Assembly: GCA_038065715.1 (NCBI GenBank)
Contig: JBBTQL010000004.1
Span: forward strand, 35,693-99,692
Direction: 5' to 3'
DNA: 64,000 bases
Source of the DNA: Patescibacteria group bacterium
GTDB taxonomy: Bacteria; Patescibacteriota; Minisyncoccia; Minisyncoccales; Staskawiczbacteraceae
The translations under genes were made by a program, and so were the position numbers. Below are positions 7,914-64,000 of this stretch, piece after piece. Every line of letters begins with the position of its first letter. The first letter of the stretch is position 1. The notes under the pieces were generated by a model that did not search any database, had not been told where the DNA came from, and worked only from the letters and a program-made list of their open reading frames with translations.

Positions 7914-8748
7914 TTTTATTAAAAATATTATTTTTTATTTCTTTTAAGTCGGCTCCCGTTTTCATTAAAAGCCCGGCAGTTTCAAAAATTTCCTGCGTTG
8001 TTTTTGAATTTCCAAAATTTTCTGTGTAAATTGCCAGTCCTGCCAAAAAGCAGTTGGCAGCCTGTTTTTTTACCCCGTTAGAAAGCCCATCTTTTGAGGG
8101 TTCCTTATTGGATGGGTCGTATGGCCCCGGTTGCTCAAGCTTTCTATCGGGGTTTACAAGATTTAACGCCATCTCTGACAAAGAATAATCTCTTATTATG
8201 TTTATTCTACCAAAGTTTTGGTTTTTTGTCCCGACTTCGTCGAGGATGCTCGATGGCGAAGCCATCGGCACACTTTCACTATCTATATTTAAAATAAGAG
8301 AATCCAGTAAAAACCCATAAGAGTTAAGCTTGCCAGCCAATTCAGTTTTAAAATCTTTTATTCCTAAAGTTATTGTAAGGTCTGGTTTTGTTTCTGAAAA
8401 ATAAAATAAGAGGTTTTCTTTTTTTATATTTCCCCTGTCAATCATTAAATGAATTTTTAATCCTTCTTCATTTTTTTCGTAGTAAACCTGCGAGATTTCA
8501 GCTGTTTTTTGAGGAATTGAAATCACAAAGTTTTTTGGATATGAAATATGGCCTAAGCTAGGCAATAAAAATCGAAATTTTTCTGGAAATTCTTCTATTA
8601 TTAAGTTTACATTTTTATTTAATTCTTTTAAAGTATAAAAAAGAGCCAAAGCAACTGGAATGCTTTCGCCATTTGGGTTATCATTTGGAATAATGCAGAT
8701 ATTTTTTGCTTCAGAAATTAATTGCTTTGCTTCTTGCGGTATTTCCAT
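7906..8748 (-). CDS. Hypothetical protein, possibly a degenerate DHH-family phosphoesterase, carrying a GC-palindrome insertion
   Basis: N-terminus ICIIPNDNPNGESIPVALALF resembles DHH motif I/II but lacks the catalytic His. Overlaps pilB by 8 nt. Palindromic element at 8228-8271 lies in-frame. Confidence 0.35.
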   Translation of the reverse strand: MEIPQEAKQLISEAKNICIIPNDNPNGESIPVALALFYTLKELNKNVNLIIEEFPEKFRFLLPSLGHISYPKNFVISIPQKTAEISQVYYEKNEEGLKIHLMIDRGNIKKENLLFYFSETKPDLTITLGIKDFKTELAGKLNSYGFLLDSLILNIDSESVPMASPSSILDEVGTKNQNFGRINIIRDYSLSEMALNLVNPDRKLEQPGPYDPSNKEPSKDGLSNGVKKQAANCFLAGLAIYTENFGNSKTTQEIFETAGLLMKTGADLKEIKNNIFNKNE

Positions 8749-21181: not shown

Positions 21182-21787
21182 ATGATAGCATTTTTATCGG
21201 GTAAAATTTTATTAAAAAAGGACAAGTTTATCATTCTTGAAGCAGCTGGCGTTGGCTACAAAGTTTTTTTAAATCAGCAAACCCTATCCCGACTCGATCG
21301 AGGATCCTCGACGACTTCGTCGTCGGGATTAAAATTATCAGAAATAGGGCAGGATGTAAAGCTATTTTGCTTCCAAAATATAAAAGAAGATGCTTCGGAT
21401 TTATATGGGTTTTTAAGTTATGACGAGCTTGATTTTTTTGAGGTGCTAAACGATATTCATGGCGTAGGGCCAAAAGCTGCTTTGGAAATTTCTGTGTTAG
21501 GCCCCTTAGAAAAAATTAAGGACAGAATTTTAGCGCAGGACGAAAAAATATTTGAAGGAATTCCCGGAATTGGTTCAAAAAGGGCGTCGTCAATTATTTT
21601 AGAATTGACCGGAAAAATAATGGCGAAGTCCGCCTTTGCTAAAGCTTCGCCAGACGAAGCAGAAACCGCTTTAACCCAGCTTGGTTTTTCAAAACAGCAA
21701 GCAAAGGATGCCCTGGCTCGCGTGCCTGTTGCTGTTAAAAATTCTGAAGACAGAATAAAATTAGCGCTTAAAAATTTAGGAAAATAA
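21182..21787 (+). CDS. ruvA: Holliday junction DNA helicase RuvA
   Basis: MIAFLSGKILLK...GVGYKVF domain I. HhH motifs DIHGVGPKAALEI / GIPGIGSKRASSIIL. 40-nt GC palindrome at 21288-21327 is in-frame. The ORF track's upstream start (21098) is probably spurious. Confidence 0.8.
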   Translation: MIAFLSGKILLKKDKFIILEAAGVGYKVFLNQQTLSRLDRGSSTTSSSGLKLSEIGQDVKLFCFQNIKEDASDLYGFLSYDELDFFEVLNDIHGVGPKAALEISVLGPLEKIKDRILAQDEKIFEGIPGIGSKRASSIILELTGKIMAKSAFAKASPDEAETALTQLGFSKQQAKDALARVPVAVKNSEDRIKLALKNLGK

Positions 21788-24218: not shown

Positions 24219-24878
24219 ATGGCTGTGCAAGTCATTGGCGATCTATATGTGGAGTTGGATGGGAAGTTGGCGGAGATTAAGCGGCAAATGAGGCAGCAGG
24301 GAGGCTATCCGTTTGACCCGGAGAAATTAAACAAGTTTCTCCAACTAGCTGTCGAGGGCAGGTTCAACGACAACCGGTGCTGGTGCGAGAAGGAAGGAGT
24401 GATCTACTTTGAGGTCACCTCTGACGGCACGACTGGACCCCAATGGATTGAGCGTCTGGAGAAGAAGGGTATCCAGCTCTCCAAGTGGGCCAAGGACGTC
24501 CTGCTGTCTCCGGACTTCAAGCCGACCAACGGCGTGACCACCGAGATCGCTGTCCTCAAGGGCGCGCTTTTTATGGACAATGATCGCATCACGTCTAAGA
24601 TCCGCGCTGAGGCCGACAAGCGCAAGCTCGTCAAGCCCGAAGCCGAACTCGGTTGCCTTATCCGCGACACGTTCACGGACGAGGAAATCGAAGCCATGGG
24701 TCTTGTGTGGATCGTGGCGTTCCACGAGCCCATCAAGGACTCTGACGGCGATCCGACGTTGCTCGGTGCGCGTCGCCTTGGCGATGGCCGTTGGCTGCGC
24801 GCGTGCTGCGGCCTGCCCGACCGCAGGTGGCTTCGCGACCGTGGCTTTGCCTTCGCCGTCTCGCAAGTATCTTCGTAA
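24219..24878 (+). CDS. DGR variable (target) protein A, with the variable region at its C-terminus
   Basis: SD aaaggagattgtc then ATG. 219 aa, ~57% GC. The C-terminal 42 codons are the VR matched by TR-A. Confidence 0.75.
   Translation: MAVQVIGDLYVELDGKLAEIKRQMRQQGGYPFDPEKLNKFLQLAVEGRFNDNRCWCEKEGVIYFEVTSDGTTGPQWIERLEKKGIQLSKWAKDVLLSPDFKPTNGVTTEIAVLKGALFMDNDRITSKIRAEADKRKLVKPEAELGCLIRDTFTDEEIEAMGLVWIVAFHEPIKDSDGDPTLLGARRLGDGRWLRACCGLPDRRWLRDRGFAFAVSQVSS
24741..24866 (+). repeat. DGR-A variable repeat (VR)
   Basis: 126 nt aligned to TR-A (25208-25333). Mismatches fall essentially only where the TR has A (e.g. TR aatcgcaatgac vs VR cgtcgccttggc). The 3' end ggctttgccttcgccgtctcgcaa is identical (IMH-like). 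Confidence 0.8.
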
Positions 24879-25207
24879 GTCCTTTGGGCTTGAGCCTTTG
24901 CTCTAGCCCTTGGATCCTCTGCCCTTTGCATTTCCTCACGGACTTGCACTGGGCAGATTTTTTTTGCTAAAATATAAATGGTAATAGGTGAATCTTGCGG
25001 GAGATCAAGGTTTCCCGCGGCCGAATCCAGTATTCGTATGCTGAGAGCGTTTGCGATTAAGGTTGCAAACGGAGGGCATACGAATTACTTTCAAAAAAGA
25101 AGATACTTGGCGTGGGAAACTAGGGCATTACGATGCCGAATTCGATACAGCCCTGTGATCGTAAAACTACTTCAAGGGGCAGTGGCATAGATGGTTTCTT
25201 GCGTATT

Positions 25208-25333
25208 TCTGACGGCGATCCGAACTTGCTCAGTGCGAATCGCAATGACGATGGCCATTGGCTGAACGCGTACTACGACAAGCCCGACAACAGGTGGAAT
25301 CGCGACAATGGCTTTGCCTTCGCCGTCTCGCAA
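25208..25333 (+). repeat. DGR-A template repeat (TR)
   Basis: Non-coding copy of the VR, rich in AAC/AAT codons (…AACGCGTACTACGACAAGCCCGACAACAGGTGGAATCGCGACAAT…). Confidence 0.8.
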
Positions 25334-25339
25334 CTCTCT

Positions 25340-25699
25340 TCATTTCTCTCCTTGCTTAGGAGAGTTTTGTTTAATAATTTGTCCCGACCAACCACCGAGC
25401 ATTTTGCCAATTTCATCTAGTTTCAATGATAGAGCAATATATTTTTTGTTATCCAATGATTTTGTTTCCCAAAGAATCATTAAAAATATTTTTAACGTAT
25501 CGACCTTTCTAATTGCTAAACGTACATAGGACAATTTTTCTGATTGCCCAAGAAAACTTGCAGTCACTATTGCCTCTATTGCTTCAACAAAAAGTTTATC
25601 AATTTTTTCACCAAGAGAATATTTATGTATTTTTGGTATAATTAAATAGTGTTGGTACCAAAAAAGATAAGCTTCTTTCAACTTTTGCAAAACAGGCAA
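25340..25699 (-). CDS. avd: DGR accessory variability determinant Avd-A (TTG start)
   Basis: 120 aa. ...KYSLGEKIDKLFVEAIEAIVTASF...KLDEIGKMLGGWSGQIIKQ matches Avd four-helix-bundle proteins (compare Bordetella bAvd ...EVGRILGSWIARVNRK). Starts at TTG 25697-25699 just downstream of the C10 tract, as in copy B. The ORF track's longer start (25834) runs through the homopolymer. Confidence 0.7.
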   Translation of the reverse strand: MPVLQKLKEAYLFWYQHYLIIPKIHKYSLGEKIDKLFVEAIEAIVTASFLGQSEKLSYVRLAIRKVDTLKIFLMILWETKSLDNKKYIALSLKLDEIGKMLGGWSGQIIKQNSPKQGEK

Positions 25700-25705
25700 C
25701 AGTCT

Positions 25706-25715
25706 GGGGGGGGGG
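25706..25715. repeat. Homopolymeric G10 (C10 on the avd strand) in the avd/RT divergent intergenic region
   Basis: agtctGGGGGGGGGGattaaaag. The equivalent position in DGR-B has G7. Confidence 0.9.
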
Positions 25716-25739
25716 ATTAAAAGCTGAGTTATTTTGATT

Positions 25740-26726
25740 ATGAAAATTACTTTGCAACATAAATACGAAGACATCATAAGCGTTGAGAATATTTTGGAAG
25801 CATGGCAAGAGTTTCTTCTCGGCAAAAGAAACAAGCCCGATGTTCAAGAATTTTCTCTCTGTCTGATGAATAATGTTTTTAATTTGCACAACGACTTATC
25901 CAATCATACCTACAAACACGGAGGCTATCAACAATTTAAAATTAACGACCCAAAGCCAAGAACAATCCACAAAGCCAGCGTAAAAGACAGATTATTGCAC
26001 CACGCAGTATATCGTATATTATACCCGTTTTTTGATAAAAAGTTTATTGCAGACTCTTTCTCTTGCAGAAACAACAAAGGCACTCATAAAGCATTAAACA
26101 AATTCAGGGAGTTCAGCTATATTGTTTCCAAAAACAACACAAACACCTGCTGGATTTTAAAATGCGACATAAAAAAGTTTTTTGCCAGCGTTGATCAGCA
26201 GATACTAATTAAAATTTTAGAAAAATATATTTCAGAAAAAGATATTATCAACTTTCTAAAAGAAATAATTTTTGGTTTTAAACCCAATGGTTTGCCTCTC
26301 GGTAATTTGACTTCCCAGTTGTTCGCAAATGTTTATCTGAATGAATTTGACCAGTTTGTAAAACACAAATTGAAAGTAAAATACTATATTAGGTATGCCG
26401 ATGACTTCGTAATTTTATCAGAGAACAAAAATTATTTAAAAAACATAATTCCAGAGCTAAAATATTATTTAAAAAACAATTTAAAACTGGAAATTCATCC
26501 AAATAAAATTTTTATTAAAACATTGAATTCTGGCGTTGATTTTTTAGGCTGGATTAATTTTACAGATCATAGAGTTTTAAGGACAAAAACTAAAAACAGA
26601 ATATTAAAGAGAATAAAAAATAATTCAAGTATTGAAACATTAAATTCTTATTCGGGTTTGTTAAAACATGGAAATATGAACAAAATGATTAAGAAATTAT
26701 TTAAGGAAACGGAGATTGCTTTTTAA
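25740..26726 (+). CDS. DGR reverse transcriptase A
   Basis: RT motifs including GLPLGNLTSQLFANVYLNEFD (DGR-type motif 4) and YIRYADDFV (YxDD). 329 aa. Nearly identical to the partial RT at 63686. Confidence 0.85.
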   Translation: MKITLQHKYEDIISVENILEAWQEFLLGKRNKPDVQEFSLCLMNNVFNLHNDLSNHTYKHGGYQQFKINDPKPRTIHKASVKDRLLHHAVYRILYPFFDKKFIADSFSCRNNKGTHKALNKFREFSYIVSKNNTNTCWILKCDIKKFFASVDQQILIKILEKYISEKDIINFLKEIIFGFKPNGLPLGNLTSQLFANVYLNEFDQFVKHKLKVKYYIRYADDFVILSENKNYLKNIIPELKYYLKNNLKLEIHPNKIFIKTLNSGVDFLGWINFTDHRVLRTKTKNRILKRIKNNSSIETLNSYSGLLKHGNMNKMIKKLFKETEIAF

Positions 26727-27990: not shown

Positions 27991-28018
27991 TTGACATTTG
28001 TTTTTTTGGGATTAAAAT
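27991..28018 (+). promoter_or_regulatory. Promoter TTGACA-N16-TAAAAT
   Basis: ttgaca 27991-27996 and taaaat 28013-28018, upstream of a 170-nt structured transcript. Confidence 0.45.
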
Positions 28019-28024
28019 GCAAAG

Positions 28025-28200
28025 TGAGGGGGTGAGAGATTTATTCTCAAGGACAGAATAGTTCTTAATGAAGGAGGTTTATGCATATGCCTAGCTTCAC
28101 ATTGTCCGAATCTAGTTTAAACAACAGGCCAAGAGCGTTGAGAATTATATACCCCCTCATCAAAAAAACCATCCTTCGATAAACTCAGGATGGTTTTTTC
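28025..28200 (+). ncRNA. Candidate small RNA / leader-peptide transcript with a closing helix and terminator
   Basis: gagggggt (28026-28033) pairs with accccctc (28151-28158). Strong SD aaggagg followed by a 33-codon ORF (28081-28182, MHMPSFTLSESSLNNRPRALRIIYPLIKKTILR). Terminator aaccatcc..ggatggtt + T6 at 28166-28200. Confidence 0.35.
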
Positions 28201-28282
28201 GATTGATAAGGCGCATCTTTTTTGTTAATATACAAATAAAGGTCGTAACTTATTTTAGCTTTAAATTATTCAAATTTATTTT

Positions 28283-32697: not shown

Positions 32698-34527
32698 ATG
32701 AAGAACAAGGAAATTGCTAAAATATTTTATGAAATAGCGAAATTTTTAGAAATAGAAAGAGTGGCTTTTAAGCCCTATGCTTATGAAAGGGCTGGTAATT
32801 CCTTAGAAGCATTGAAAGAAGATGTGGGCGATATTTATAGAAAAGGCGGGGCAAAGGCTTTGCAGGAAATTTCAGGAGTCGGCAAAAATATTGCAGGGCA
32901 TATTGAAGAGTATTTAAAAAATGGAAAGGTAAAAATCTACGAACAGCTTAAAAAGAAATTGCCCCTTAAAATAGATGAGTTGATTAAAGTAGAAGGTTTG
33001 GGCCCAAGAAAAATAAAAATTCTTTATCAAAAATTAGGCGTTAAAAATTTGAAAGATTTGGAAAAGATGGCTAAGGCGCATAAAATAGCCCCGCTTTTCG
33101 GTTTTGGAGAAAAAACAGAAAATAATATTTTAGAAGGCATTGAATTTTTAAAAAGAAGCAAAGGCCGGTCTCGTTTGGGAGACATAATGCCAATAGTAGA
33201 AGAAATTTTTGAAAATTTAAAAAATTTAAAAGAGGTTGAAAAAATCAGTTTAGCTGGCTCTTTAAGAAGAAGAAAAGAAACTATTGGAGATGTTGATATT
33301 TTAGTGGTTTCCCGCCCAGCAGGGCGAGGCTCGCCTGGTGAGGCGGCTAATAAAGTAATGGATTTTTTTGTTTCTCAAGAGGGCGTAGAAAAAGTATGGG
33401 GCAAAGGAGGAACAAAAGCATCGGTTCATATGAAATATGGATTTGATATGGATTTAAGAATTGTTCCCGAAAAAAGTTATGGCTCTGCTTTGCAATACTT
33501 TACCGGGTCAAAAGACCACAATATTGTTACAAGAAAAATTGCCATAGAAAAAGGCCTAAAATTAAGCGAGTACGGAGTTTTTAAAGGAAAAAAACAGATT
33601 GCCGGTAAAACAGAAGAAGATGTTTATAAAGCAATTGGTTTGCCATTTATAGAACCAGAATTAAGAGAAAACGAAGGCGAAATTGAGGCGGCTCTTCGAC
33701 AAGCTCAGGGTAAACTTCCGGGATTGCCAAAAATAGTTGAGTTAAAAGATATAAGGGGGGACTTACATTGCCATTCAAAACCCGATGGAGTCGCCCATTT
33801 GAATGTCGGAGAAAAATCGATTGAAGAAATGGCTAAAGTGGCAATGGCTATGGGTTACGAATATATTGGAATTTCTGATCATACAAAATTTTTAAAAATT
33901 GATGATGGTTTAGACGAGAAACAATTATTAAAACAAAATGAAGCAATAAAAAAAATAAATACCCGCCTCCGCCAACCTGCGCTTCGCCAAAGGCTTCGGC
34001 AAGGCGAGGGCTTCGGCGGGCAAGAAAAATTTCGCATACTTCACGGATGCGAGGCAAATATTCTACCGGACGGTTCAATAGATATTAAAGACGAAGTTTT
34101 GGCTCAATTAGATTATGTTATAGCTGGCGTTCACAATGCTTTAAAACAAGAAAAACTAAAAATGACAGAAAGGTTAATAAGAGCAATGAAAAATCCGAAT
34201 GTTGATATTATTTCGCATCCAACGGGCAGATTAATAGGCAGCAGAGACGAATATCAAATTGATTTTGATAAAATTTTAGAAATAGCAAAAGAAACCGGAA
34301 CAATTTTGGAAATTAATTCGTCTCCTTACAGATTAGATTTAAAAGACTTATATGTCAGAAGAGCAAAAAATGAAGGCGTGAAAATGATTATAAATACCGA
34401 CAGCCACCAAAAAGAGCAATTAAATCTTATGGAATATGGAGTTTCGCAAGCCAGAAGAGGTTGGGCGGAGAGAGAGGATATTATAAACACAAATTCATTA
34501 GACGGATTATTAAAATATTTTAAATGA
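32698..34527 (+). CDS. DNA polymerase X family protein with a C-terminal PHP domain
   Basis: N-terminal HhH/Pol-beta-like region (GVGKNIAGHIEEYL, GDVDIL). PHP motifs DLHCHS and ISDH. Two in-frame GC inserts (33311-33346; 33962-34021). Confidence 0.85.
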   Translation: MKNKEIAKIFYEIAKFLEIERVAFKPYAYERAGNSLEALKEDVGDIYRKGGAKALQEISGVGKNIAGHIEEYLKNGKVKIYEQLKKKLPLKIDELIKVEGLGPRKIKILYQKLGVKNLKDLEKMAKAHKIAPLFGFGEKTENNILEGIEFLKRSKGRSRLGDIMPIVEEIFENLKNLKEVEKISLAGSLRRRKETIGDVDILVVSRPAGRGSPGEAANKVMDFFVSQEGVEKVWGKGGTKASVHMKYGFDMDLRIVPEKSYGSALQYFTGSKDHNIVTRKIAIEKGLKLSEYGVFKGKKQIAGKTEEDVYKAIGLPFIEPELRENEGEIEAALRQAQGKLPGLPKIVELKDIRGDLHCHSKPDGVAHLNVGEKSIEEMAKVAMAMGYEYIGISDHTKFLKIDDGLDEKQLLKQNEAIKKINTRLRQPALRQRLRQGEGFGGQEKFRILHGCEANILPDGSIDIKDEVLAQLDYVIAGVHNALKQEKLKMTERLIRAMKNPNVDIISHPTGRLIGSRDEYQIDFDKILEIAKETGTILEINSSPYRLDLKDLYVRRAKNEGVKMIINTDSHQKEQLNLMEYGVSQARRGWAEREDIINTNSLDGLLKYFK

Positions 34528-34538
34528 AATTTAAAAAT

Positions 34539-34567
34539 TTGACACAGAGTTGAGGGGGGGGTATTAT
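34539..34567 (+). promoter_or_regulatory. Promoter TTGACA-N17-TATTAT whose spacer holds a G8 homopolymer (candidate phase-variable promoter)
   Basis: ttgaca 34539-34544. Spacer cagagttgaGGGGGGGG (17 nt, G run 34554-34561). tattat 34562-34567. Directly upstream of the secreted protein gene at 34665. Confidence 0.5.
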
Positions 34568-34664
34568 AAGATAATATCAAAAATATCAAATTTTTAGTTT
34601 TTAATTTCTAATTTTTTAAATAATTTTTCAATTTTAGAATTTTAAAATTAAAATTTAATAGCAT

Positions 34665-36359
34665 ATGAGAATAAAATATTTTTTAATAACAGCTGTTTTA
34701 GCAACATCAATTTTAGGTTCTGGCGGTTTTGTGAAAGCGCAAACCACAGACAATTCAGCGTTAATTGCCCAACTTCAAGCGCAAATTCAGGCAATTCTGC
34801 AACAAATAGCGCAACTGCAAGCTCAGCAAGATACAAACGCGGTCCAAAACTCTGCGTCAGAAAATGCTAATTCAGACAGTTCAAAAGCAAACTGGTGCTA
34901 TAATTTCAAACAAAACTTGTGGATTGGTAAAAATGGCAGGCCTGTTGAGGCTTTACAGATTGCTTTGTCTAAAGAAGGTTTGTTTGACGCCAGTTTAATT
35001 AAGAATCCATGGAGATTTGGCCCCTCTACCTTATTGGCAGTAATCAAGTTTCAGAATAAATATAGCATAAAACCAACAGGATATGTGGGCTTCGCCACAA
35101 ACAAAAAACTAAACGAACTCTACGGCTGCAAAACCACCGAGTCATCAGTTACAGTTACTTCGCCCAACGGCGGAGAGGAGTGGGTGCGAGGGTCAACTCA
35201 TAATGTTACGTGGACGTCTCAAAATGTGGAAAGAGATGTTTATCTTACAATTAAAAACTTTGACACAAACGTCATAAAGAGCATTTCTTTAGCGCCTGTT
35301 TCGCCGGTCAGCGATTCTGCTTCTTTTAATATTCCGTCTGATTTGGCCGTGGGAAACAAATATAAGGTTAGAGTGGGAAATAGCGATGTTTCAGATTACA
35401 GCGACAATTATTTTAGCATTCTTGATACAACAACTTCTTCAAATGCGTCTATTACCGTCACTTCGCCCAACGGCGGAGAAACATGGCAAGTCGGCGGAAC
35501 GCATAATATCACATGGTTCAGTCAGGGTGCAAATGCTATAAATTATAATGTTCAAATCGGAATTATTGATAATCGCTATAGTACGGAATCAGGAGATAGA
35601 TCCGAAAAAATTATAGTAAATTCTATTCCTAATACTGGCAGTTATTCTTGGACGGTGCCTCAATCTATTGGAACAATGAATCTGAATGATACTATCCAAC
35701 CGGTTTATAAAATTGTTGTACATTCTCGAAGTGATGCGGTTACAGGAGTGGCTCTTGGAGACTCGAGCGATAATCCTTTCAGTATTGTGGCGCCGACGGT
35801 TGCCTGTACGTCATTTACCTATTCAGCTTGGGGGGCTTGCCAGTCAAACAATACCCAAACAAGAACAGTTGTATCATCCTCGCCAACTGGATGCGCAGGA
35901 GGCAGCCCAATATTATCGCAATCTTGCGGAGTAGTAAAGACTGTATTCAGCAATAGCCAAATTTATCTTGACGCCAATAGCAAAGTAGCGCCCTTGTCTT
36001 GCACTAATTATAAGTGTAACGGCTCTTTTGGCTATTGCTCTGCTTCTTGCGGAGGAGGATATTATCCAGATAATTTAACAGCCCAGAAATTGTGCCAGAA
36101 AAAAGGTTACGATGCAGCTTCAAGTTTCACCATAAAAAATGGTTTTTATGCATCTTGCAGCGATAACTATATGTGGAAATGGAATGGGGTTAGCGCTGAA
36201 TATGTTTGGTCTTGCGTTAAAAATAGCGGTATAGACACTGTCACTTGCTCAAAAACTGTTGGGACTACGGCAAGCATTGATTCTCAAGATCAATTAGCGT
36301 CTATTTCTAGCGCAATACAAAGAATAGCTCAACAAATTCAAGCATTATTTGAAAGGTAA
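34665..36359 (+). CDS. Secreted protein with a peptidoglycan-binding domain, repeated SPNGGE-W-type beta domains and a Cys-rich C-terminus
   Basis: Signal peptide MRIKYFLITAVLATSILGSGGFVKA. Q-rich coiled coil. PG_binding_1-like GKNGRPVEALQIALSKEG...IKFQNKYSIKPTGYVG. Two VTVTSPNGGEEW/ETW..G.TH.TW repeats. Many Cys in the last 150 aa. Confidence 0.65.
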   Translation: MRIKYFLITAVLATSILGSGGFVKAQTTDNSALIAQLQAQIQAILQQIAQLQAQQDTNAVQNSASENANSDSSKANWCYNFKQNLWIGKNGRPVEALQIALSKEGLFDASLIKNPWRFGPSTLLAVIKFQNKYSIKPTGYVGFATNKKLNELYGCKTTESSVTVTSPNGGEEWVRGSTHNVTWTSQNVERDVYLTIKNFDTNVIKSISLAPVSPVSDSASFNIPSDLAVGNKYKVRVGNSDVSDYSDNYFSILDTTTSSNASITVTSPNGGETWQVGGTHNITWFSQGANAINYNVQIGIIDNRYSTESGDRSEKIIVNSIPNTGSYSWTVPQSIGTMNLNDTIQPVYKIVVHSRSDAVTGVALGDSSDNPFSIVAPTVACTSFTYSAWGACQSNNTQTRTVVSSSPTGCAGGSPILSQSCGVVKTVFSNSQIYLDANSKVAPLSCTNYKCNGSFGYCSASCGGGYYPDNLTAQKLCQKKGYDAASSFTIKNGFYASCSDNYMWKWNGVSAEYVWSCVKNSGIDTVTCSKTVGTTASIDSQDQLASISSAIQRIAQQIQALFER

Positions 36360-36373
36360 TCAATTAGAGAATG

Positions 36374-36405
36374 AAACCAGCCCAATGGGCTGGTTTTGTT
36401 TTTAA
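36374..36405 (+). terminator. Intrinsic terminator (aaccagccc/gggctggtt + T-run)
   Basis: Hairpin immediately after the stop of the 34665 gene. Confidence 0.6.
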
Positions 36406-38037: not shown

Positions 38038-38054
38038 TTGTATTTATTATTTTA

Positions 38055-38403
38055 GTGGAAGCGCCGGGGTCGAACCCGGGTCCAGAAATTTTTTAAAAAT
38101 AAATCTACAAATTTATCTTGCTTTGTTGTTTGGATATTAAATAAGAAGCAAGAAAAATGTTTAATATCCTAATTCTCGTAAATCTCGACAGTTCCCCGAG
38201 AAATAAAACTGCCTATCCTGAAAATATAACACCCTCGGTCCATTTATCAGGAGTCAATGGCGAGGATGCAGCATTAAGCTAAAGCTAGTGCTGGTTGCCT
38301 ATTAAATAAATTAGCAATTATGTTTTTTCTATAAGTTTAACCAGGTTATAGAAAACTGGATTTGCATATTTTTAATGAAACATCTGTCAAAACTTACGCT
38401 CCC
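38055..38403 (-). ncRNA. ssrA: tmRNA (SsrA)
   Basis: 3' end GGACCCGGGTTCGACCCCGGCGCTTCCA (T-arm + acceptor) at 38056-38083 on the minus strand. 5' GGGAGCG at 38397-38403 pairs with the 3' CGCUUCC to form a 7-bp acceptor stem. Candidate tag reading frame gct aat tta ttt aat agg caa cca gca cta gct tta gct taa gives (A)NLFNRQPALALA* (plus 38274-38315). Lies immediately downstream of smpB. Confidence 0.65.
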
Positions 38404-39830: not shown

Positions 39831-41482
39831 TAAAAGAAGAAATAAAAAAAATAGTGGAAAACTCAATTAAAAACCTGCAAAAACAGGGCGCATTTTTAAA
39901 ATTAAAAATGCCAGAAATTTTAATTGAGCGGCCTAAAGAAAAAATACGCGGTGACTATTCAACCAACATTGCCTTTGTAATTGGAAAAGATGTTTTGAAA
40001 AATCCATTTGAAACGGCATTGCTTTTGAAAACAGAAATTGTCTCGCTTTGCGAGATCTCGCGCAGCGAGAAAAAACAAAAATCTGTAATAGAAAAAGTTG
40101 AGGTAGTGGGAGGGTTTATTAATTTTTTTGTTGCTGACGATTATTTTAAAAATCAGCTGCAAATTATTTTAAAACAAAAAAACAAATTTGGAGATTTAAA
40201 ACTTGGTAAAAGTCAAAAAGTAAACATAGAATTTATTTCTGCAAATCCAACAGGGCCGTTAACTTTAGGAAACGGCAGAGGAGGATTTTGTGGCGATGTT
40301 TTGGCTAATGTTTTAGAAAAAGCAGGATATAAAGTTGAAAGAGAATATTATATTAACAATACCGGAGCTCAAATTAAAAAACTTGGGCATTCTGTAATTG
40401 GAGATGCAGAAGCTGTTTACAAAGGAAAATATATTATTGATTTAAGAAACAAAGTTAAGGGAGATGACCCCGAGAAAGTTGGAGAAAAATCGGCAAAAAT
40501 TATTTTAGAAAAAATGATAAAGCCGTCTGTAAAAAAAATGGGAATTAAATTTGACACATGGTTTTCAGAAAAAACTCTCTATAAAAATAAAGAAGTAGAT
40601 AAAACAATACAAGAATTGGCTAAAAAAGGGTTCACCTATGAAAGCGAAGACGCTGTGTGGTTTAAATCTAAAGAATTGGGCGATGACAAAGACAGGGTTT
40701 TGGTGAGAGCCGACGGAATTAAAACATATTTTGCTTCAGATATTGCTTATTTTAAAAATAAATTTAAAAGAGGGTTTGGTAAACTTATTATGTTTTTGGG
40801 AGCCGACCACTATGGATATGTTCCGAGGCTAAAAGCTGCCTCGCTTGCTTTTGGTTTTAAAAAAGACAGTATTGATGCTATTGTTATGCAGTTGGTGCGG
40901 CTTTATGAAAAAGGCAAAGAAGTAAGAATGGCAAAAAGGACTGGTATTTATGTAACAATAGATGAGTTAATTGGCGAGGTTAGTTTGGATGTTGCCAGAT
41001 TTTTCTTTTTAATGATAAGCCCTAATACCCACATGAATTTTAATTTGGATTTAGCAAAAGAAAAATCAGAGAAAAATCCGGTTTTTAAAGTGCAATATGC
41101 GCATGCCCGAATTTGCTCAATTTTCCGAAAATTTGGAAATTTCAAATTTTCCCGATTTCATCGAGGATCCTCAATGGCAAAGCCATCGGGACAAATTTCA
41201 AATTTAAAATTATTAAATGAGCCGAGCGAGTTAGGGTTAATTAGAGAATTAATTAAACTTCCAGAAATTATTGAAGAGATAGCTAAAGATTATCAAGTTC
41301 AAAGACTACCGCAATACGCAATGGATTTAACTGATGCATTCCATAGATTTTATGAAAACTGTAAAGTCCTGAGCGAAGTCGAAGGATTGCGTGATGCCCG
41401 CTTGTCTCTTGTTATGGCAACAAAAATTGTTTTAAAAAATACATTAGACTTAATGGGAATATCTGCTCCTGAAAAAATGTGA
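39827..41482 (+). CDS. argS: Arginyl-tRNA synthetase
   Basis: ISANPTGPLTLGNGRGGFCGDVLANVLEKAGYKV class I signature. C-terminal anticodon-binding DALR domain. Composite heptamer + palindrome insertion at 41129-41210 is in-frame. Confidence 0.9.
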   Translation: MIKEEIKKIVENSIKNLQKQGAFLKLKMPEILIERPKEKIRGDYSTNIAFVIGKDVLKNPFETALLLKTEIVSLCEISRSEKKQKSVIEKVEVVGGFINFFVADDYFKNQLQIILKQKNKFGDLKLGKSQKVNIEFISANPTGPLTLGNGRGGFCGDVLANVLEKAGYKVEREYYINNTGAQIKKLGHSVIGDAEAVYKGKYIIDLRNKVKGDDPEKVGEKSAKIILEKMIKPSVKKMGIKFDTWFSEKTLYKNKEVDKTIQELAKKGFTYESEDAVWFKSKELGDDKDRVLVRADGIKTYFASDIAYFKNKFKRGFGKLIMFLGADHYGYVPRLKAASLAFGFKKDSIDAIVMQLVRLYEKGKEVRMAKRTGIYVTIDELIGEVSLDVARFFFLMISPNTHMNFNLDLAKEKSEKNPVFKVQYAHARICSIFRKFGNFKFSRFHRGSSMAKPSGQISNLKLLNEPSELGLIRELIKLPEIIEEIAKDYQVQRLPQYAMDLTDAFHRFYENCKVLSEVEGLRDARLSLVMATKIVLKNTLDLMGISAPEKM

Positions 41483-57600: not shown

Positions 57601-57629
57601 TTGACTTTATTTTAGCATTATGATATCAT
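57601..57629 (+). promoter_or_regulatory. Promoter TTGACT-N17-TATCAT upstream of csrA
   Basis: ttgact 57601-57606, 17-nt spacer, tatcat 57624-57629. The leader has a 9-bp hairpin (taactcttt/aaagagtta) and a C7 tract at 57675-57681 just 5' of the SD aaaggagag. Confidence 0.45.
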
Positions 57630-57698
57630 AAAAGTAACTCTTTATTTCAGTCAAGATGACCGAAAAGAGTTAGACCCCCCCAGAAAGGAGAGTGCAAG

Positions 57699-57953
57699 AT
57701 GCTGGTTTTGTCCCGCAAGAAGAACGAGAGCATTGTCATCAACGACGATATCACGATTGTCGTGATAGAAATCCGCGGCGACAAGGTTCGCCTCGGCATT
57801 GATGCGCCAAAAGAGGTGCCTGTCCACCGGCGCGAAGTGTTTGACGCGATACGTCGCGATGATGCTTCAGCAGCTAGTACGGGGATTAAAACCTCCGAGA
57901 CCCCCGATAATCTGGAGGATCCCGCCGAGGAAAGCCCTCAAGACCCAGGTTAA
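57699..57953 (+). CDS. csrA: Carbon storage regulator CsrA (GC-rich, with an acidic C-terminal extension)
   Basis: MLVLSRKKNESIVINDDITIVVIEIRGDKVRLGIDAPKEVPVHRREVFDAI aligns along its full length with CsrA/RsmA. ~55% GC against a ~33% background. Confidence 0.8.
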   Translation: MLVLSRKKNESIVINDDITIVVIEIRGDKVRLGIDAPKEVPVHRREVFDAIRRDDASAASTGIKTSETPDNLEDPAEESPQDPG

Positions 57954-59467: not shown

Positions 59468-62014
59468 ATGAATATGGCAAAATATAATCCTCAAAAAATT
59501 GAGAAGAAATGGCAAGAGGCTTGGTATAAATCAAGCATTTTTAAAGCTAAAAACGGGTCTAAAAATAAGAAATTTTACCTTTTAGTGGAGTTTCCTTATC
59601 CTTCGGGAGACGGGCTTCATGTCGGCCATTGCCGAAGCTATACTGCCTTAGATATTATTGCCAGAAAAAAAAGAATGCAGGGATTTAATGTTTTATTCCC
59701 AATGGGCTGGGACGCTTTTGGATTGCCAACTGAAAATTATGCCATAAAAAAGGGAGTACACCCGTCTGTTGTGACAAAAAAGAATACAGATAACTTTAGG
59801 CGGCAGATGAAAAGTTTGGGGCTTTCTTTTGACTGGAGCCGAGAAATAAATACCACAGACCCAAAATATTATAAATGGACGCAGTGGATTTTTTTGCAGT
59901 TATTTAAAAATAACTTGGCTTATAAAGATAAAATTGCAATCAACTGGTGCCCTAAAGATAAAATTGGATTGGCAAATGAAGAAGTGATAAATGGCAAATG
60001 CGAAAGATGCGGCGCAAAAGTTGAAAAAAGAGATAAAGAGCAATGGATGATAAAAATTACAAAATATGCCGACAGATTAATTGAAGATTTAAATTTAGTT
60101 GATTATTTAGAAAAAATAAAAATACAGCAGAAAGATTGGATAGGCGAGTCACATGGAGCGTTGATAAAATTTTCGTTAGAAGGAAGCGAAGAATTCATAG
60201 AAGTTTTTACAACCAGAATAGACACAATATTTTCTGGCACGTTTTTAATTTTATCTCCAGGACACAATTTTATAGATAAATATAAAAATAAAATTGAAAA
60301 CATTGATGAAGTTTTAAAATATAGAGAAACCGCAAAAAATACTTCTGATATAGATAGAACTAATCAAGATAAAGATATTACAGGAGTGGAATTAAAAGGA
60401 ATTACAGTAAAAAATCCTGCCACAAATGAAGAAATGCCAGTTTGGACAGCTGATTTTGTTTTAGAGCAATACGGAACAGGAGTCGTTTTTGCTGATGCCC
60501 ATGATAAAAGAGATTTTAAAATGGCAAAAAAATATGGGATACCTTTGCGAACTTCAATAAAACCAGAAAATGAACTATCGGCGCAAAAAGCAAAAAATTT
60601 GGAAGAATGTTTTGAGGGCGAAGGCGCTCTTTATAATTCTATGCATTTTGACGGCTTAACTTCTTCTGAAGCCCGACCTAAAATAATTTCTTGGTTAAGG
60701 GAAAAAGGATATGCGGAAAACAAAATAAGCTATAAGCTTCGAGATTGGGTTTTTTCGCGCCAGCATTATTGGGGCGAGCCAATACCAATGATTTTTTGCG
60801 TAAAATGCGGTTGGCAGGCTGTTTTAGAAAAAAATCTGCCCGTTGAATTGCCTAAGGTAAAAAAATATCAGCCAACAGATACAGGCGAATCTCCTCTTTC
60901 TGCTATTGAAAAATGGGTAAATGTAAAATGTCCAAAATGCAAAGGACCGGCAAAAAGAGAAACAGACACAATGCCTAATTGGGCAGGTTCAAACTGGTAT
61001 TACTTGGCATATACTATGCCAAAAATTTCAAATTTCAAATTTCAAATTTCAAATTCTGCGAAAGAATTTTCGCAGTGGATGCCAGTTGACTGGTATAATG
61101 GCGGAATGGAGCACACAACTTTGCATTTATTGTATTCAAGATTTATTTTTAAATTTTTATGGGATATTGGAGCTGTTCCAAAAATAATTGGGGCAGAACC
61201 ATATAAAAAAAGAACTTCGCATGGAATGATTTTAGGCGAAGGGGGAATTAAAATGTCAAAGTCAAAGGGAAATGTAATAAATCCAGATTCAGTTGTGAAA
61301 CAATATGGAGCCGACACCTTAAGAGTTTACGAAATGTTTATCGGGCCTTTTGAGCAAATGATTCCTTGGGATATAAAGGGGGTTGTTGGTTCGCGCAGGT
61401 TTTTAGAAAAAATTTACAACTTAGTTTTGAAGAAGGCAATTCCGGCAAAAATCCCGACGGTCTCGCCGTCGAGGACCCGCGACGAAGTCGGGGCAGAAGA
61501 AAATTTTAAAAAACTTTTGCATAAAACAATAAAAAAGGTTGGTGACGATATTGAGGCAATGAAATTTAACACAGCAGTGAGCTCTTTAATGGAATTTGTA
61601 AATGCATGGAGCATTGCTGAAAATAGTTTAGATAAACCAGCCTCCGATAAAGGCTACGGCTTGGCGAAGAAAGATTTGCAAGAATTTTTAAAGATTTTGT
61701 CGCCTTTTGCCCCGCATTTGTCAGAAGAGCTTTGGCAAAGAGCTGGATTTAAAGGTTTGTGCTGCGCTCAAAAATGGCCTAAGTATGACGAAAAATTAAT
61801 TGAAGAAAAAAACATATTGCTTATTGTGCAAATTAACGGTAAAGTTAGAGATAAAATAGAAGTTAACGCAGGCATTACTCAAAAACAAGCTGAAGAAATA
61901 GTTTTAAAATTAGAAAAAATTAAAAACCGTATAACTAATATTAAAGAAGTGGAAAAAGTTGTTTTTGTGCCAGGTAAGTTAATAAATTTTGTGACTATTG
62001 ACAAGGATAAGTAA
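59468..62014 (+). CDS. leuS: Leucyl-tRNA synthetase
   Basis: HVGHCRSYTALDIIARKKRMQGFNVLFPMGWDAFGLP (HIGH region). KMSKSKGN. 848 aa. Heptamer array + hairpin at 61023-61077 and palindrome at 61453-61494 are in-frame. Confidence 0.9.
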   Translation: MNMAKYNPQKIEKKWQEAWYKSSIFKAKNGSKNKKFYLLVEFPYPSGDGLHVGHCRSYTALDIIARKKRMQGFNVLFPMGWDAFGLPTENYAIKKGVHPSVVTKKNTDNFRRQMKSLGLSFDWSREINTTDPKYYKWTQWIFLQLFKNNLAYKDKIAINWCPKDKIGLANEEVINGKCERCGAKVEKRDKEQWMIKITKYADRLIEDLNLVDYLEKIKIQQKDWIGESHGALIKFSLEGSEEFIEVFTTRIDTIFSGTFLILSPGHNFIDKYKNKIENIDEVLKYRETAKNTSDIDRTNQDKDITGVELKGITVKNPATNEEMPVWTADFVLEQYGTGVVFADAHDKRDFKMAKKYGIPLRTSIKPENELSAQKAKNLEECFEGEGALYNSMHFDGLTSSEARPKIISWLREKGYAENKISYKLRDWVFSRQHYWGEPIPMIFCVKCGWQAVLEKNLPVELPKVKKYQPTDTGESPLSAIEKWVNVKCPKCKGPAKRETDTMPNWAGSNWYYLAYTMPKISNFKFQISNSAKEFSQWMPVDWYNGGMEHTTLHLLYSRFIFKFLWDIGAVPKIIGAEPYKKRTSHGMILGEGGIKMSKSKGNVINPDSVVKQYGADTLRVYEMFIGPFEQMIPWDIKGVVGSRRFLEKIYNLVLKKAIPAKIPTVSPSRTRDEVGAEENFKKLLHKTIKKVGDDIEAMKFNTAVSSLMEFVNAWSIAENSLDKPASDKGYGLAKKDLQEFLKILSPFAPHLSEELWQRAGFKGLCCAQKWPKYDEKLIEEKNILLIVQINGKVRDKIEVNAGITQKQAEEIVLKLEKIKNRITNIKEVEKVVFVPGKLINFVTIDKDK

Positions 62015-62025: not shown

Positions 62026-62201
62026 TTAATAATACAGCTCTTTTTAAGTGAAAATACTTGCAAAAACAGCGGTTATAGCCAAAAGCGACCGAAGGTCGTC
62101 CTGAGCAGAGCCGAAGGACAACAAATCGGTATTTTCTGGCTATGACTGCTATGGTAGTAGTCAAGCGAAATGGTGAAACCCTAAAGAAAGGAAAAAGCAC
62201 C

Positions 62202-62822
62202 ATGTCGTACGACAAGCAGACAGCCGAGTTCATCGCCACTGTGGTGCAGAACATCCCCAAAATGTCAGGCGATGTTATGCAGGGTTGGATTGGGAATCCA
62301 AAAGCGCTACAGAAGCTCCTCTTGGGTCTATGCCCTTCTGTCAATGAGCCCAAGGAAGTCTCGTTGCTCCGCAAGCTCGCCAGCGTTCAGGTGGAGGGCG
62401 TTGCAAGATTCGTCGTTGACGACGATACCCTGCAGGCGGCCAACATCGGCTGGACTGGCGACAACTTCAAAAAGTTTTTCGCCAAGAAGGTTGAGGAGGA
62501 TGTTCCCGCCTGCGCTATCGCTGTTCACCGGCTGGAACGCGCGTCTTCGGATGCGCCCATTCTCACCGAACTCGGTGACCGCGCCGAAATCAGCCTCGCG
62601 CACCTGTTCGAGCTGATCAAAAAGCAGTCCAAGGGCGAAACTGGCCAGTTGTTGGTTAATGGTTATGCGAATGTCGCATATGTCCGTGGAACCGATGGCA
62701 ACCTCTGGGCTGTGCTTGCGGCCTGGCGCTCTTACTGCGGTTGCTGGGGTGTCGAGGCTGACTCGGTTGAGGATCCGGACGGGTGGCGCGGTAGCCGCCG
62801 GATTCTCTCCCGCGATTCTTGA
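62202..62822 (+). CDS. DGR variable (target) protein B, with the variable region at the extreme C-terminus
   Basis: SD aaaggaaaaagcacc then ATG at 62202. ~57% GC. Last 36 codons = VR-B. The ORF track's upstream ATG (62142) lies in the conserved leader. Confidence 0.7.
   Translation: MSYDKQTAEFIATVVQNIPKMSGDVMQGWIGNPKALQKLLLGLCPSVNEPKEVSLLRKLASVQVEGVARFVVDDDTLQAANIGWTGDNFKKFFAKKVEEDVPACAIAVHRLERASSDAPILTELGDRAEISLAHLFELIKKQSKGETGQLLVNGYANVAYVRGTDGNLWAVLAAWRSYCGCWGVEADSVEDPDGWRGSRRILSRDS
62704..62813 (+). repeat. DGR-B variable repeat (VR)
   Basis: 110 nt aligned to TR-B (63165-63274). Substitutions essentially only at TR adenines (TR tac ggt tac tgg aat ... aac vs VR tgc ggt tgc tgg ggt ... 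gac). Shared 3' attctctcccgc. Confidence 0.8.
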
Positions 62823-62867
62823 AACTTAATCCTTTTGGGATTTTGGATCTTGAATCCTTTGAATCTA

Positions 62868-62916
62868 TGGCTCTCTGAAACTTTGAAAAAAGTAGTAAGA
62901 GAGCCTTTTTGTTTTG
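62868..62916 (+). terminator. Intrinsic terminator after target B (ggctctct/agagagcc + T-run)
   Basis: 8-bp stem, 22-nt loop, ttttt gtttt. Confidence 0.5.
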
Positions 62917-63164
62917 TGAAAAAGTAATGTAGAATAAATCTAAGGAATGCTAAGTATGAAGGCTACGGCTTTCATAAAGCGCTCCGAAAATGTATATTGC
63001 AGAATTATTGCGGATACGTCTTCAATAAGAGTTGATATACATATTTCAAAAAAAGAAAAGAATCGGTGTGGCGTGCTGGCGGACTTTGAGGTCCCAAATA
63101 AGATACAGCCCCTAGAGTATTCAAAGGGCAGTGGCATTGATGGCGCGTTGCATATTAATTAGGG

Positions 63165-63274
63165 TCTGGGCTGTGAATGCGAACTGGAACTCTAACTACG
63201 GTTACTGGAATGTCGAGGCTAACTCGGTTGAGAATCCGAACAGGTGGAACGATAGCAACCAGATTCTCTCCCGC
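63165..63274 (+). repeat. DGR-B template repeat (TR)
   Basis: AAC/AAT-rich (…AACTGGAACTCTAACTACGGTTACTGGAATGTCGAGGCTAACTCG…). Encodes LWAVNANWNSNYGYWNVEANSVENPNRWNDSNQ in the VR frame. Confidence 0.8.
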
Positions 63275-63642
63275 TACTGTTTTCTTTCTTCCGCTTTTAT
63301 CGCGGAAGTTTTGCTTATTATTCCTTTTTTCCAGCCACCGATTATCTTACCAATGCCTTCTATCTCAGCGCCAAGCGAGATATATTGTTTATTAGAAACG
63401 AGTTTTGTTTCCCATAAAAGCTGAAAGAAAAAACGCAACGAATCAATTTTGTCCGATGTCGCTTCAAGCAAAACAAGTTTTTTATTTATTGGCGTATACG
63501 TAGCTTTTCTTAATAACTCAAGAAGATCTAAAAATAAAATATCTACTTTAGTCCCGATTCCGAACCGCGCGATTCGTTCAATATTGCGATGCACTTCCAT
63601 CCACTGTTTATATATCAATTTGGATTTTTGCAAAACTGGCAA
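63274..63642 (-). CDS. avd: DGR accessory variability determinant Avd-B (TTG start)
   Basis: 122 aa. ...LGAEIEGIGKIIGGWKKGIISK C-terminus. Co-linear with Avd-A. Stop codon overlaps the last 2 nt of TR-B. TTG start 6 nt from the C7 tract. Confidence 0.7.
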   Translation of the reverse strand: MPVLQKSKLIYKQWMEVHRNIERIARFGIGTKVDILFLDLLELLRKATYTPINKKLVLLEATSDKIDSLRFFFQLLWETKLVSNKQYISLGAEIEGIGKIIGGWKKGIISKTSAIKAEERKQ

Positions 63643-63648
63643 CAGTCT

Positions 63649-63655
63649 GGGGGGG
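63649..63655. repeat. Homopolymeric G7 in the avd-B/RT-B divergent intergenic region
   Basis: agtctGGGGGGGattagaag. Homologous position to the G10 tract in DGR-A. Confidence 0.9.
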
Positions 63656-63685
63656 ATTAGAAGAATAACTATTTATATTTTGATT

Positions 63686-64000
63686 ATGAAAATTGTTTTG
63701 AAACATAAATATGAATATTTAATTAGCGTTAATAATTTATTGGAAGCGTGGACAGAATTTATCAAGGGGAAGCGCAACAAAAGCGATGTTCAGATTTTTT
63801 CATTTCATTTAATGGATAATATTTTACAACTTCATTGTGATTTAAAAAATGGCACATATAAGCATGGAGGCTATCAACAATTTAAAATCAACGACCCAAA
63901 ACCAAGGATAATTCACAAAGCCAGCGTAAAAGACAGATTATTGCACCACGCAGTATATCGTATATTATACCCGTTTTTTGATAAAAAGTTCATTGCAGAC
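63686..64000 (+). CDS. DGR reverse transcriptase B (5' part; continues beyond the window)
   Basis: MKIVLKHKYEYLISVNNLLEAWTEFIKGKRNK...GGYQQFKINDPKPRIIHKASVKDRLLHHAVYRILYPFFDKKFIAD. The last ~130 nt are ~95% identical at the DNA level to RT-A 25920-26050. Confidence 0.85.
   Translation, partial: MKIVLKHKYEYLISVNNLLEAWTEFIKGKRNKSDVQIFSFHLMDNILQLHCDLKNGTYKHGGYQQFKINDPKPRIIHKASVKDRLLHHAVYRILYPFFDKKFIAD

Follow-up and report, generated by a model that had tools for sequence, protein, structure and literature searches.

A conserved G-rich block and a G8 tract in the promoter spacer of an accessory, putative surface-protein gene of a Patescibacteria group bacterium

Does a run of eight guanines (G8), lodged between the −35 and −10 hexamers of a promoter in front of a gene for a putative surface protein, act as a switch on that gene, or does it serve the promoter in some other way? 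Promoter-spacer repeats that modulate the transcription of surface antigens include the poly-A tract of Mycoplasma hyorhinis vlp and the TA repeat of Haemophilus influenzae hif, and in Neisseria meningitidis porA a G tract abuts the −10 hexamer. Expression of porA is high with 11 G, about 2-fold lower with 10 G, and 6- to 13-fold lower with 9 G (PMC3639595). In Treponema pallidum, a poly-G tract lies between the −35 and −10 of tp0126, where transcription is optimal at 17-nt spacing, and the promoters of tpr genes (E, G, J, L) also carry poly-G tracts; tracts of 7-11 G, associated with putative outer-membrane protein genes, vary within isolates, and both this variation and its transcriptional effect have been measured, by fragment-length analysis and GFP reporters (PMC7864442). 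In N. meningitidis opc, a poly-C tract lies over the −35 region (PMC7864442).

The tract considered here lies within the window (the whole 64,000-nt stretch of DNA that was analysed), and a sequence-only reading had likened it to the phase variation of Neisseria, Haemophilus and Mycoplasma; the analogy to known promoter-spacer homopolymers is exact, both with the 11G tract between the −35 and −10 of porA and with the 17-nt optimum of tp0126. The explanation that we favour, at a probability of roughly 55%, is a strong promoter driving an accessory surface-protein unit, in which a conserved G block is represented by a fixed G8 that would behave in the manner of a rheostat if it slipped.

The promoter (Table 1) is located in a 137-nt gap between polX (32698..34527) and an ORF of 564 amino acids, in the same orientation as the latter and 97 nt 5' of its ATG. 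Matching the consensus at 11 of 12 positions, it was the top match between 32 and 38 kb in an independent consensus scan, which arrived at exactly the TTGACA/17-nt/TATTAT geometry, with G8 in the spacer, that had been claimed from the letters. Near-consensus hexamers, a spacer within the 16-18 nt range, and a position upstream of a co-oriented gene are the features of a sigma-70-type promoter, and a homopolymer of at least ~7-8 nt between −35 and −10, the hallmark of the porA/tp0126 type, is present as G8 inside the 17-nt spacer. Two other interpretations of the G block were dismissed: a G-quadruplex, because there is a single G run only, and a sigma-54 promoter, because the TGGCAC-N5-TTGC motif is missing.

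Promoters of this canonical form are common in the window, which has a GC content of 34.5% and a non-coding share of 9%. Eleven sites match the consensus at 11 or more of 12 positions, against 2.3 ± 1.4 expected from first-order Markov simulations (~5-fold enrichment), and perfect 12/12 sites number three, against 0.055 expected from the same kind of simulation. Most near-consensus sites are intergenic and 5' of genes, with 8 of the 11, by our own reading of the overlap listing, in or at the edge of non-coding DNA; TTGACA-N17-TATGAT (repeat family D17), for example, precedes both target genes of the diversity-generating retroelements (DGRs) considered below. Because canonical promoters are both enriched and mostly intergenic, the organism appears to use canonical sigma-70 promoters, and the G8 site is very probably one of them, real and strong, with an activity predicted from its sequence; the promoter identity proposed by the sequence-only reading is borne out by the 11/12 match together with this enrichment. 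Its hexamers and spacing are like those of the ordinary sigma-70 promoters of the same genome, represented by at least 10 other near-consensus sites in the window. In contrast, as we read them, those promoters have AT-rich spacers, several ending in a TGn extended −10, and the G8 promoter alone carries a G block.

Only four runs of at least seven G or C occur in the window, G10 (25706), G8 (34554), G7 (63649) and C7 (57675), and all four are intergenic. The C7 run (57675-57681) lies in the 5' UTR of csrA (57699..57953; Pfam CsrA, E = 4.8e-26), between a promoter-like site (57601-57629) and a GGAG ribosome-binding site. Also present in this 34% GC genome is a GC-rich and partly palindromic repeat (42-75 nt; TCCCGAC..TCGAGGATCCTCGA..GTCGGGA). 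Each of its four copies falls within a coding gene (those of an unknown 280-aa protein, RuvA, ArgRS and LeuRS), and the copies have the appearance of a small mobile element inserted in frame. Elsewhere, positions 27991-28206 (+) contain a conserved non-coding transcription unit of ~185 nt, with a TTGACA-N16-TAAAAT promoter and a terminator, whose RNA would form a long closed hairpin (5' GAGGGGG pairing with 3' CCCCCUC; fold z = −4.48). Compared with the genome of a relative, L129, this unit is about 90% identical over the transcribed stretch (by eye) and 79% identical over the whole alignment, the DNA further downstream aligning poorly; it matched no Rfam family at E ≤ 1, and may specify a small RNA, either 6S-like or novel.

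Table 1. Features of the G8 locus and of other elements, with positions in the window, and promoters of homologous genes in relatives
Feature	Position	Strand	Description
−35 hexamer TTGACA	34539..34544	+	6/6 consensus; sequence read and consensus scan
Spacer cagagttgaGGGGGGGG, 17 nt (cagagttga + G8)	34545..34561	+	G8 = 34554-34561, abutting the −10 hexamer
−10 hexamer TATTAT	34562..34567	+	5/6 consensus; sequence read and consensus scan
AT-rich 5' leader	34568..34664	+	~90 nt from predicted start near 34574; sequence read
Gene for 564-aa protein, predicted secreted	34665..36359	+	signal peptide, Q-rich coiled coil, PG_binding_1, two Kre9_KNH Ig-like domains, Cys-rich region, C-terminal helix
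Intrinsic terminator	36374..36403	+	AAACCAGCCC-AAU-GGGCUGGUUU, then U run; fold −29.1 kcal/mol
Promoter, window			TTGACAcagagttga-GGGGGGGG-TATTAT; G8; spacer 17
Promoter, L129 (GCA_016196125.1)			TTGACAcagagc-GGGGGGGTGG-TATTAT; G7TGG; spacer 16
Promoter, L135 (paralogous locus between pth and lepB)			TTGCTAaattgtgc-GGGGGGGG-TATTATtAGATAATAT; G8; spacer 16
Promoter, L136-L138			TTGCATaattttta-GGGAGGGG-TATAAT; spacer 16
DGR-1 target gene	24219..24878		
DGR-1 VR	24741-24874		
DGR-1 TR	25208-25341		
DGR-1 avd	about 25340-25700	−	
DGR-1 G10	25706-25715		
DGR-1 RT	25740..26726		
DGR-2 target gene	62142..62822		
DGR-2 VR	62704-62820		
DGR-2 TR	63165-63281		
DGR-2 avd	63274..63642	−	
DGR-2 G7	63649-63655		
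DGR-2 RT	from about 63687		cut by window end
GC-rich repeat copies	8226-8300, 21287-21328, 41147-41221, 61450-61498		

Downstream of the promoter, AGATAATAT directly follows the −10 hexamer both in the window and in the related locus L135, and the leader holds a direct repeat, ATATCAAA-A-ATATCAAA. A Shine-Dalgarno sequence was sought in the leader and not found, which we dismissed as an argument against the start of the ORF since most genes in the window lack one (16 of 71 passed a loose test). The sequence-only reading had allowed for further regulation by the AT-rich leader; its fold is not significant (z = −1.27) and it has no match in Rfam at E ≤ 1, and a riboswitch or structured leader was rejected on these grounds.

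The gene product, named by NCBI ‘peptidoglycan-binding domain-containing protein [Patescibacteria group bacterium]’, has the N-terminus MRIKYFLITAVLATSILGSGGFVKA/Q, which we judged by eye to be a Sec signal peptide. A Pfam search identified PG_binding_1 (31.6 bits, cutoff 23), two stretches of Kre9_KNH (42.5 bits, cutoff 24.6), and a Q-rich, FlxA-like coiled coil (29.5 bits), in agreement with the product described earlier (signal peptide, peptidoglycan binding, repeated beta domains, Cys-rich tail), the repeats proving to be Kre9_KNH Ig-like domains. Its Pfam domains score above their gathering thresholds, it shares its N-terminal arrangement of signal peptide, Q-rich coiled coil and PG-binding domain with P0017, P0038, P0044 and P0051, and on these features it belongs to a PG_binding_1/Kre9_KNH family of secreted proteins of Patescibacteria; many of the 1056 homologues found at E ≤ 1e-5 have this domain content. 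The signal-peptide-like N-terminus, together with PG_binding_1 and Kre9_KNH, is what one looks for in the surface or interaction proteins typical of phase variation, and the protein is predicted to reside at the cell surface. The terminator, which starts 15 nt past the stop codon, has a fold z of −7.44, with 0 of 200 shuffles folding as well.

Members of this family have an MKIKYFLITAVLA-type N-terminus encoded by near-identical signal-peptide DNA (ATGA.AAT.AA.TATTTTTT.ATAACAGC; window 34665-34760, and L132, L135, L139) and a similar C-terminal helix (..LASISSAI.RIAQQIQ..; window 36290-36356, and the same three loci). Their middles are only 30-40% identical and variable in domain content, giving the proteins a cassette-like architecture.

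The position of this unit on the chromosome can be compared among relatives through PolX, whose best homologues are 74-77% identical, several being named Candidatus Staskawiczbacteria. Gene order in L128 and L130/L131 is greA, MFS, polX, NUDIX, L20, L35, IF3, smpB, the NUDIX gene coming directly after polX; in the window, the promoter-gene-terminator unit sits between these two genes. L136-L138 have a homologue of 968 amino acids at the same polX-NUDIX position, and in L129 (GCA_016196125.1) polX is followed by an rve transposase and then by a homologous gene of >800 amino acids. Since the unit is absent in L128 and L130/L131, with homologues in place in L129 and L136, we take it to be an accessory gene, one that varies while its place on the chromosome is conserved. 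The insertion of the rve-family transposase (L129 5457-6890) separates polX from the G-block promoter, which in that genome is adjoined by a duplicated agggtccttttg motif. Adjoining smpB in the window is a tmRNA gene (38053-38403, minus strand; Rfam 112 bits), for which ARAGORN gives the tag peptide ANLFNRQPALALA.

Comparison of the promoters of six family members, four lineages of which carry a G block (Table 1), places G8 in a wider setting. Both hexamers are conserved at the homologous loci. L129 and L135 have TATTAT as the −10 next to the block, and L136 has TATAAT; TTGACACAGAG, at the −35, is identical 5' of the homologous gene in L129; and L135 has a further TTGACA 28 nt 5' of the −10. 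The block is a perfect homopolymer in two of the four lineages (window and L135), and is interrupted in the other two (G7TGG and GGGAGGGG). The leaders and the more distal upstream DNA of the four lineages could not be aligned. Because the G-block-plus-(−10) arrangement recurs 5' of homologous genes in three other genomes, coincidence is excluded, and the recurrence points to an inherited promoter element specific to the surface-protein family. Moreover, since the block is conserved while being interrupted in two of four lineages and combined with 16-nt spacers, it is as a sequence element that it appears to have been maintained; mutability is not conserved in all lineages. Judged by this comparison, the block is kept G-rich in AT-rich genomes, a conserved architecture not previously described for CPR promoters, and may act through spacing, through local DNA rigidity, or as a binding site.

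These observations suggest a mechanism in which a sigma-70-type promoter would drive a self-contained accessory unit (AT-rich leader, surface-protein gene, intrinsic terminator) placed between polX and the NUDIX gene of a Candidatus Staskawiczbacteria-like (Patescibacteria/CPR) groundwater bacterium. G8 would be the local version of the conserved G-rich block that abuts the −10 in promoters of this surface-protein family; the block would set the spacer at the optimal 17 nt, and, G8 being fixed, the gene would be held at a stable, high-expression setting. The tract could physically slip by one G, which would give a 16- or 18-nt spacer, both in the working range, with 16 nt in use among relatives. 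As relatives function with 16-nt spacers and interrupted blocks, a one-G change would not be expected to turn the gene off, and would probably shift its output only modestly, as a rheostat does rather than an on/off switch.

How constant the tract is in the source population was assessed from assembled contigs. The exact 564-aa protein is present on nine contigs, and the five listed among them (ERZ1292632, ERZ1292640, ERZ1292638, ERR3858118, ERR3858116) come from different ENA/Logan data sets, all from Hainich well H43 (one aquifer well). Each of the five contains TTGACACAGAGTTGA-G8-TATTAT, so that with the window G8 is found in six of six consensus sequences, and elsewhere the five are 99.9-100% identical to the window. 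The contigs carrying the exact PolX all run on into the surface gene (5/5), with no contig break at G8. These are consensus assemblies of one near-clonal population, in which minority length variants are invisible, and ‘fixed’ refers here to G8 as the majority state only. Within that meaning, G8 looks fixed in the sampled population at optimal spacing, and the length variation anticipated by the sequence-only reading, which a fixed tract would contradict, did not appear at the consensus level. When metagenome contigs were scanned for the exact promoter with a stretch of 4-14 nt substituted for the G run, the same Hainich contig was the only genuine match and no population was added; the 34 other matches were set aside as unrelated 27-nt sequences, most of them in contigs named human-gut metagenome.

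The locus might instead be a true contingency promoter, in which slipped-strand mispairing at G8 frequently shifts the spacer between lengths of 16, 17 and 18 nt and the population is dominated by a favoured G8. Such a promoter would generate subpopulations differing in the amount of surface protein, as in porA or tp0126, whose geometry is identical; G8 also falls in the length range of proven phase-variable tracts (7-11 for T. pallidum poly-G), and an on/off switch at G8 is plausible, although the loss of one G from porA brings only about a 2-fold change. The predicted target, a secreted, cell-wall-associated protein of a fast-diverging family, would suit such a role, as would the intergenic position of all four window G/C runs of at least seven. 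L135 has an uninterrupted G8 and L129 a G7, despite the AT-richness of these genomes, and persistence of G8 and G7 at 34% GC would also be expected under selection for mutability; set against this are the relatives, whose spacers are 16 nt long and among which blocks can be interrupted (G7TGG, GGGAGGGG). MutS and MutL have been reported absent from Saccharibacteria, and are thus missing in at least one CPR phylum. Slippage may even be active in this organism, in which a neighbouring tract is G9, G10 or G11 in otherwise identical DNA, but those differences may in part reflect homopolymer sequencing error at 4-12x coverage, and G8 itself is the same in six of six consensus sequences, without a contig break at the tract. 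On balance, we consider a contingency promoter somewhat unlikely.

The neighbouring tract belongs to one of two paralogous DGRs in the window (24219-26726 and 62142-64000), in each of which the VR is at the C-terminal end of the target gene. In both elements, VR/TR mismatches within the repeats are at TR adenines, and Pfam identifies RVT_1 and bAvd. The divergent start codons of avd and RT are 39-46 nt apart, and the interval contains a G run whose flanks are conserved (ggcaacagtct-Gn-atta); this run lies 6 nt away from the TTG of avd and 24-31 nt away from the ATG of RT. The DGR-1 tract, 9 kb from G8, is G10 in the window, G11 in L086, and G9 in both L088 and the 139-kb contig L087, and its length is the sole difference from the window across 5,660 and 3,557 aligned bases; a single sample yielded both L086 and L088, each of which stops no more than a few tens of nt from the tract. 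Either the DGR-1 tract is truly unstable in the population, or it is error-prone at 4-12x coverage: tracts of 9-11 G look unstable in the source organism, and G8 looks invariant by the same yardstick.

A broader proposal is that poly-G tracts serve this bacterium as contingency loci, comprising the G8 promoter and two DGR cassettes (G9-11 and G7), such that both surface-protein dosage and DGR activity would be stochastically switchable. The G tract could act as a slippage switch on the DGR, and we regard the joint proposal as unlikely. The idea that a G tract is a general feature of DGRs was rejected, as seven IMG/VR RT relatives (44-58% identity) examined 5' of the RT start, a truncated eighth (L143) being left out, have no G/C run of at least six near the RT. 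A common origin for the G8 promoter and the DGR tracts was likewise rejected, because their flanks share only ACAG and ATTAnAAG-like strings, too weak a likeness in AT-rich DNA; so was a G-block-based promoter at the DGR tracts, because neither strand has a −35/−10 pair of conserved spacing in both cassettes. An exact copy of the DGR-1 target protein was found on eight contigs, and one of the DGR-2 target only on a single 980-nt contig, a rarity that suggests VR-2 may differ between assemblies.

The G run could also be incidental, inherited with gene and promoter from a common ancestor as mere spacer filling. The number of runs of at least eight G or C in the window does not significantly exceed expectation (2 observed, 0.51 expected under a first-order Markov model, P ~0.1), and the G block is absent in two other family members (L132-L134, L139). 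Nor was a G/C run of at least seven, or a G block beside a −10, seen 5' of the gene at 80 loci from GTDB species representatives, more distant homologues retrieved by a protein scan, whose similarity to the 564-aa protein is confined to the N-terminal coiled coil and the PG-binding part. We nevertheless find this reading quite improbable: both the position beside the −10 and the G content have been kept in the four lineages, although their leaders and upstream DNA can no longer be aligned, and a neutral G8 would be expected to decay fast in a 34% GC genome. Finally, an assembly or sequencing artefact, whether a chimeric join or one of the poly-G read-end artefacts of two-colour Illumina chemistry, is effectively refuted by the same G8 and flanks in five more contigs from different assemblies and assemblers (ENA, some with SPAdes-style NODE names; Logan), and by the homologous G block in unrelated data sets.

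Full-text literature searches returned no report that connects Patescibacteria/CPR with phase variation or with homopolymeric tracts. A host-attached way of life is assumed for these bacteria, and the locus bears on how host-attached CPR bacteria vary their surfaces, a largely unexplored matter; it also supplies a well-defined promoter and a conserved G-block element for a lineage in which promoter architecture has barely been described. If G8, and more so the unstable G9-11 beside the DGR RT, were to switch, minimal-genome bacteria would be combining stochastic promoter tuning with targeted retro-mutagenesis, and if poly-G tracts did prove to be contingency loci, they would be the first case of simple-repeat phase variation described for Patescibacteria, and would make a DGR, for the first time, subject to a slippage switch.

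Judged by its letters, the G8 site is a new member of the promoter-spacer homopolymer type exemplified by porA and tp0126, and is a putative switch. The repeats of opc, vlp and hif resemble it as simple repeats in or beside the core promoter of surface-antigen genes, but differ in repeat unit and position, and are established switches in host-associated pathogens. porA is closer, a G tract in the sigma-70 spacer of a surface-protein gene whose length sets both spacing and expression; its tract, however, has 9-11 G and varies within cultures, whereas G8 is invariant in consensus assemblies of an uncultured CPR bacterium without known host immune pressure. In contrast to tp0126 and tpr, where length variation has been measured, the consensus sequences here are invariant, yet tp0126, with poly-G between −35 and −10, a 17-nt optimum and a small-genome organism as its bearer, is the closest formal analogue of the G8 promoter.
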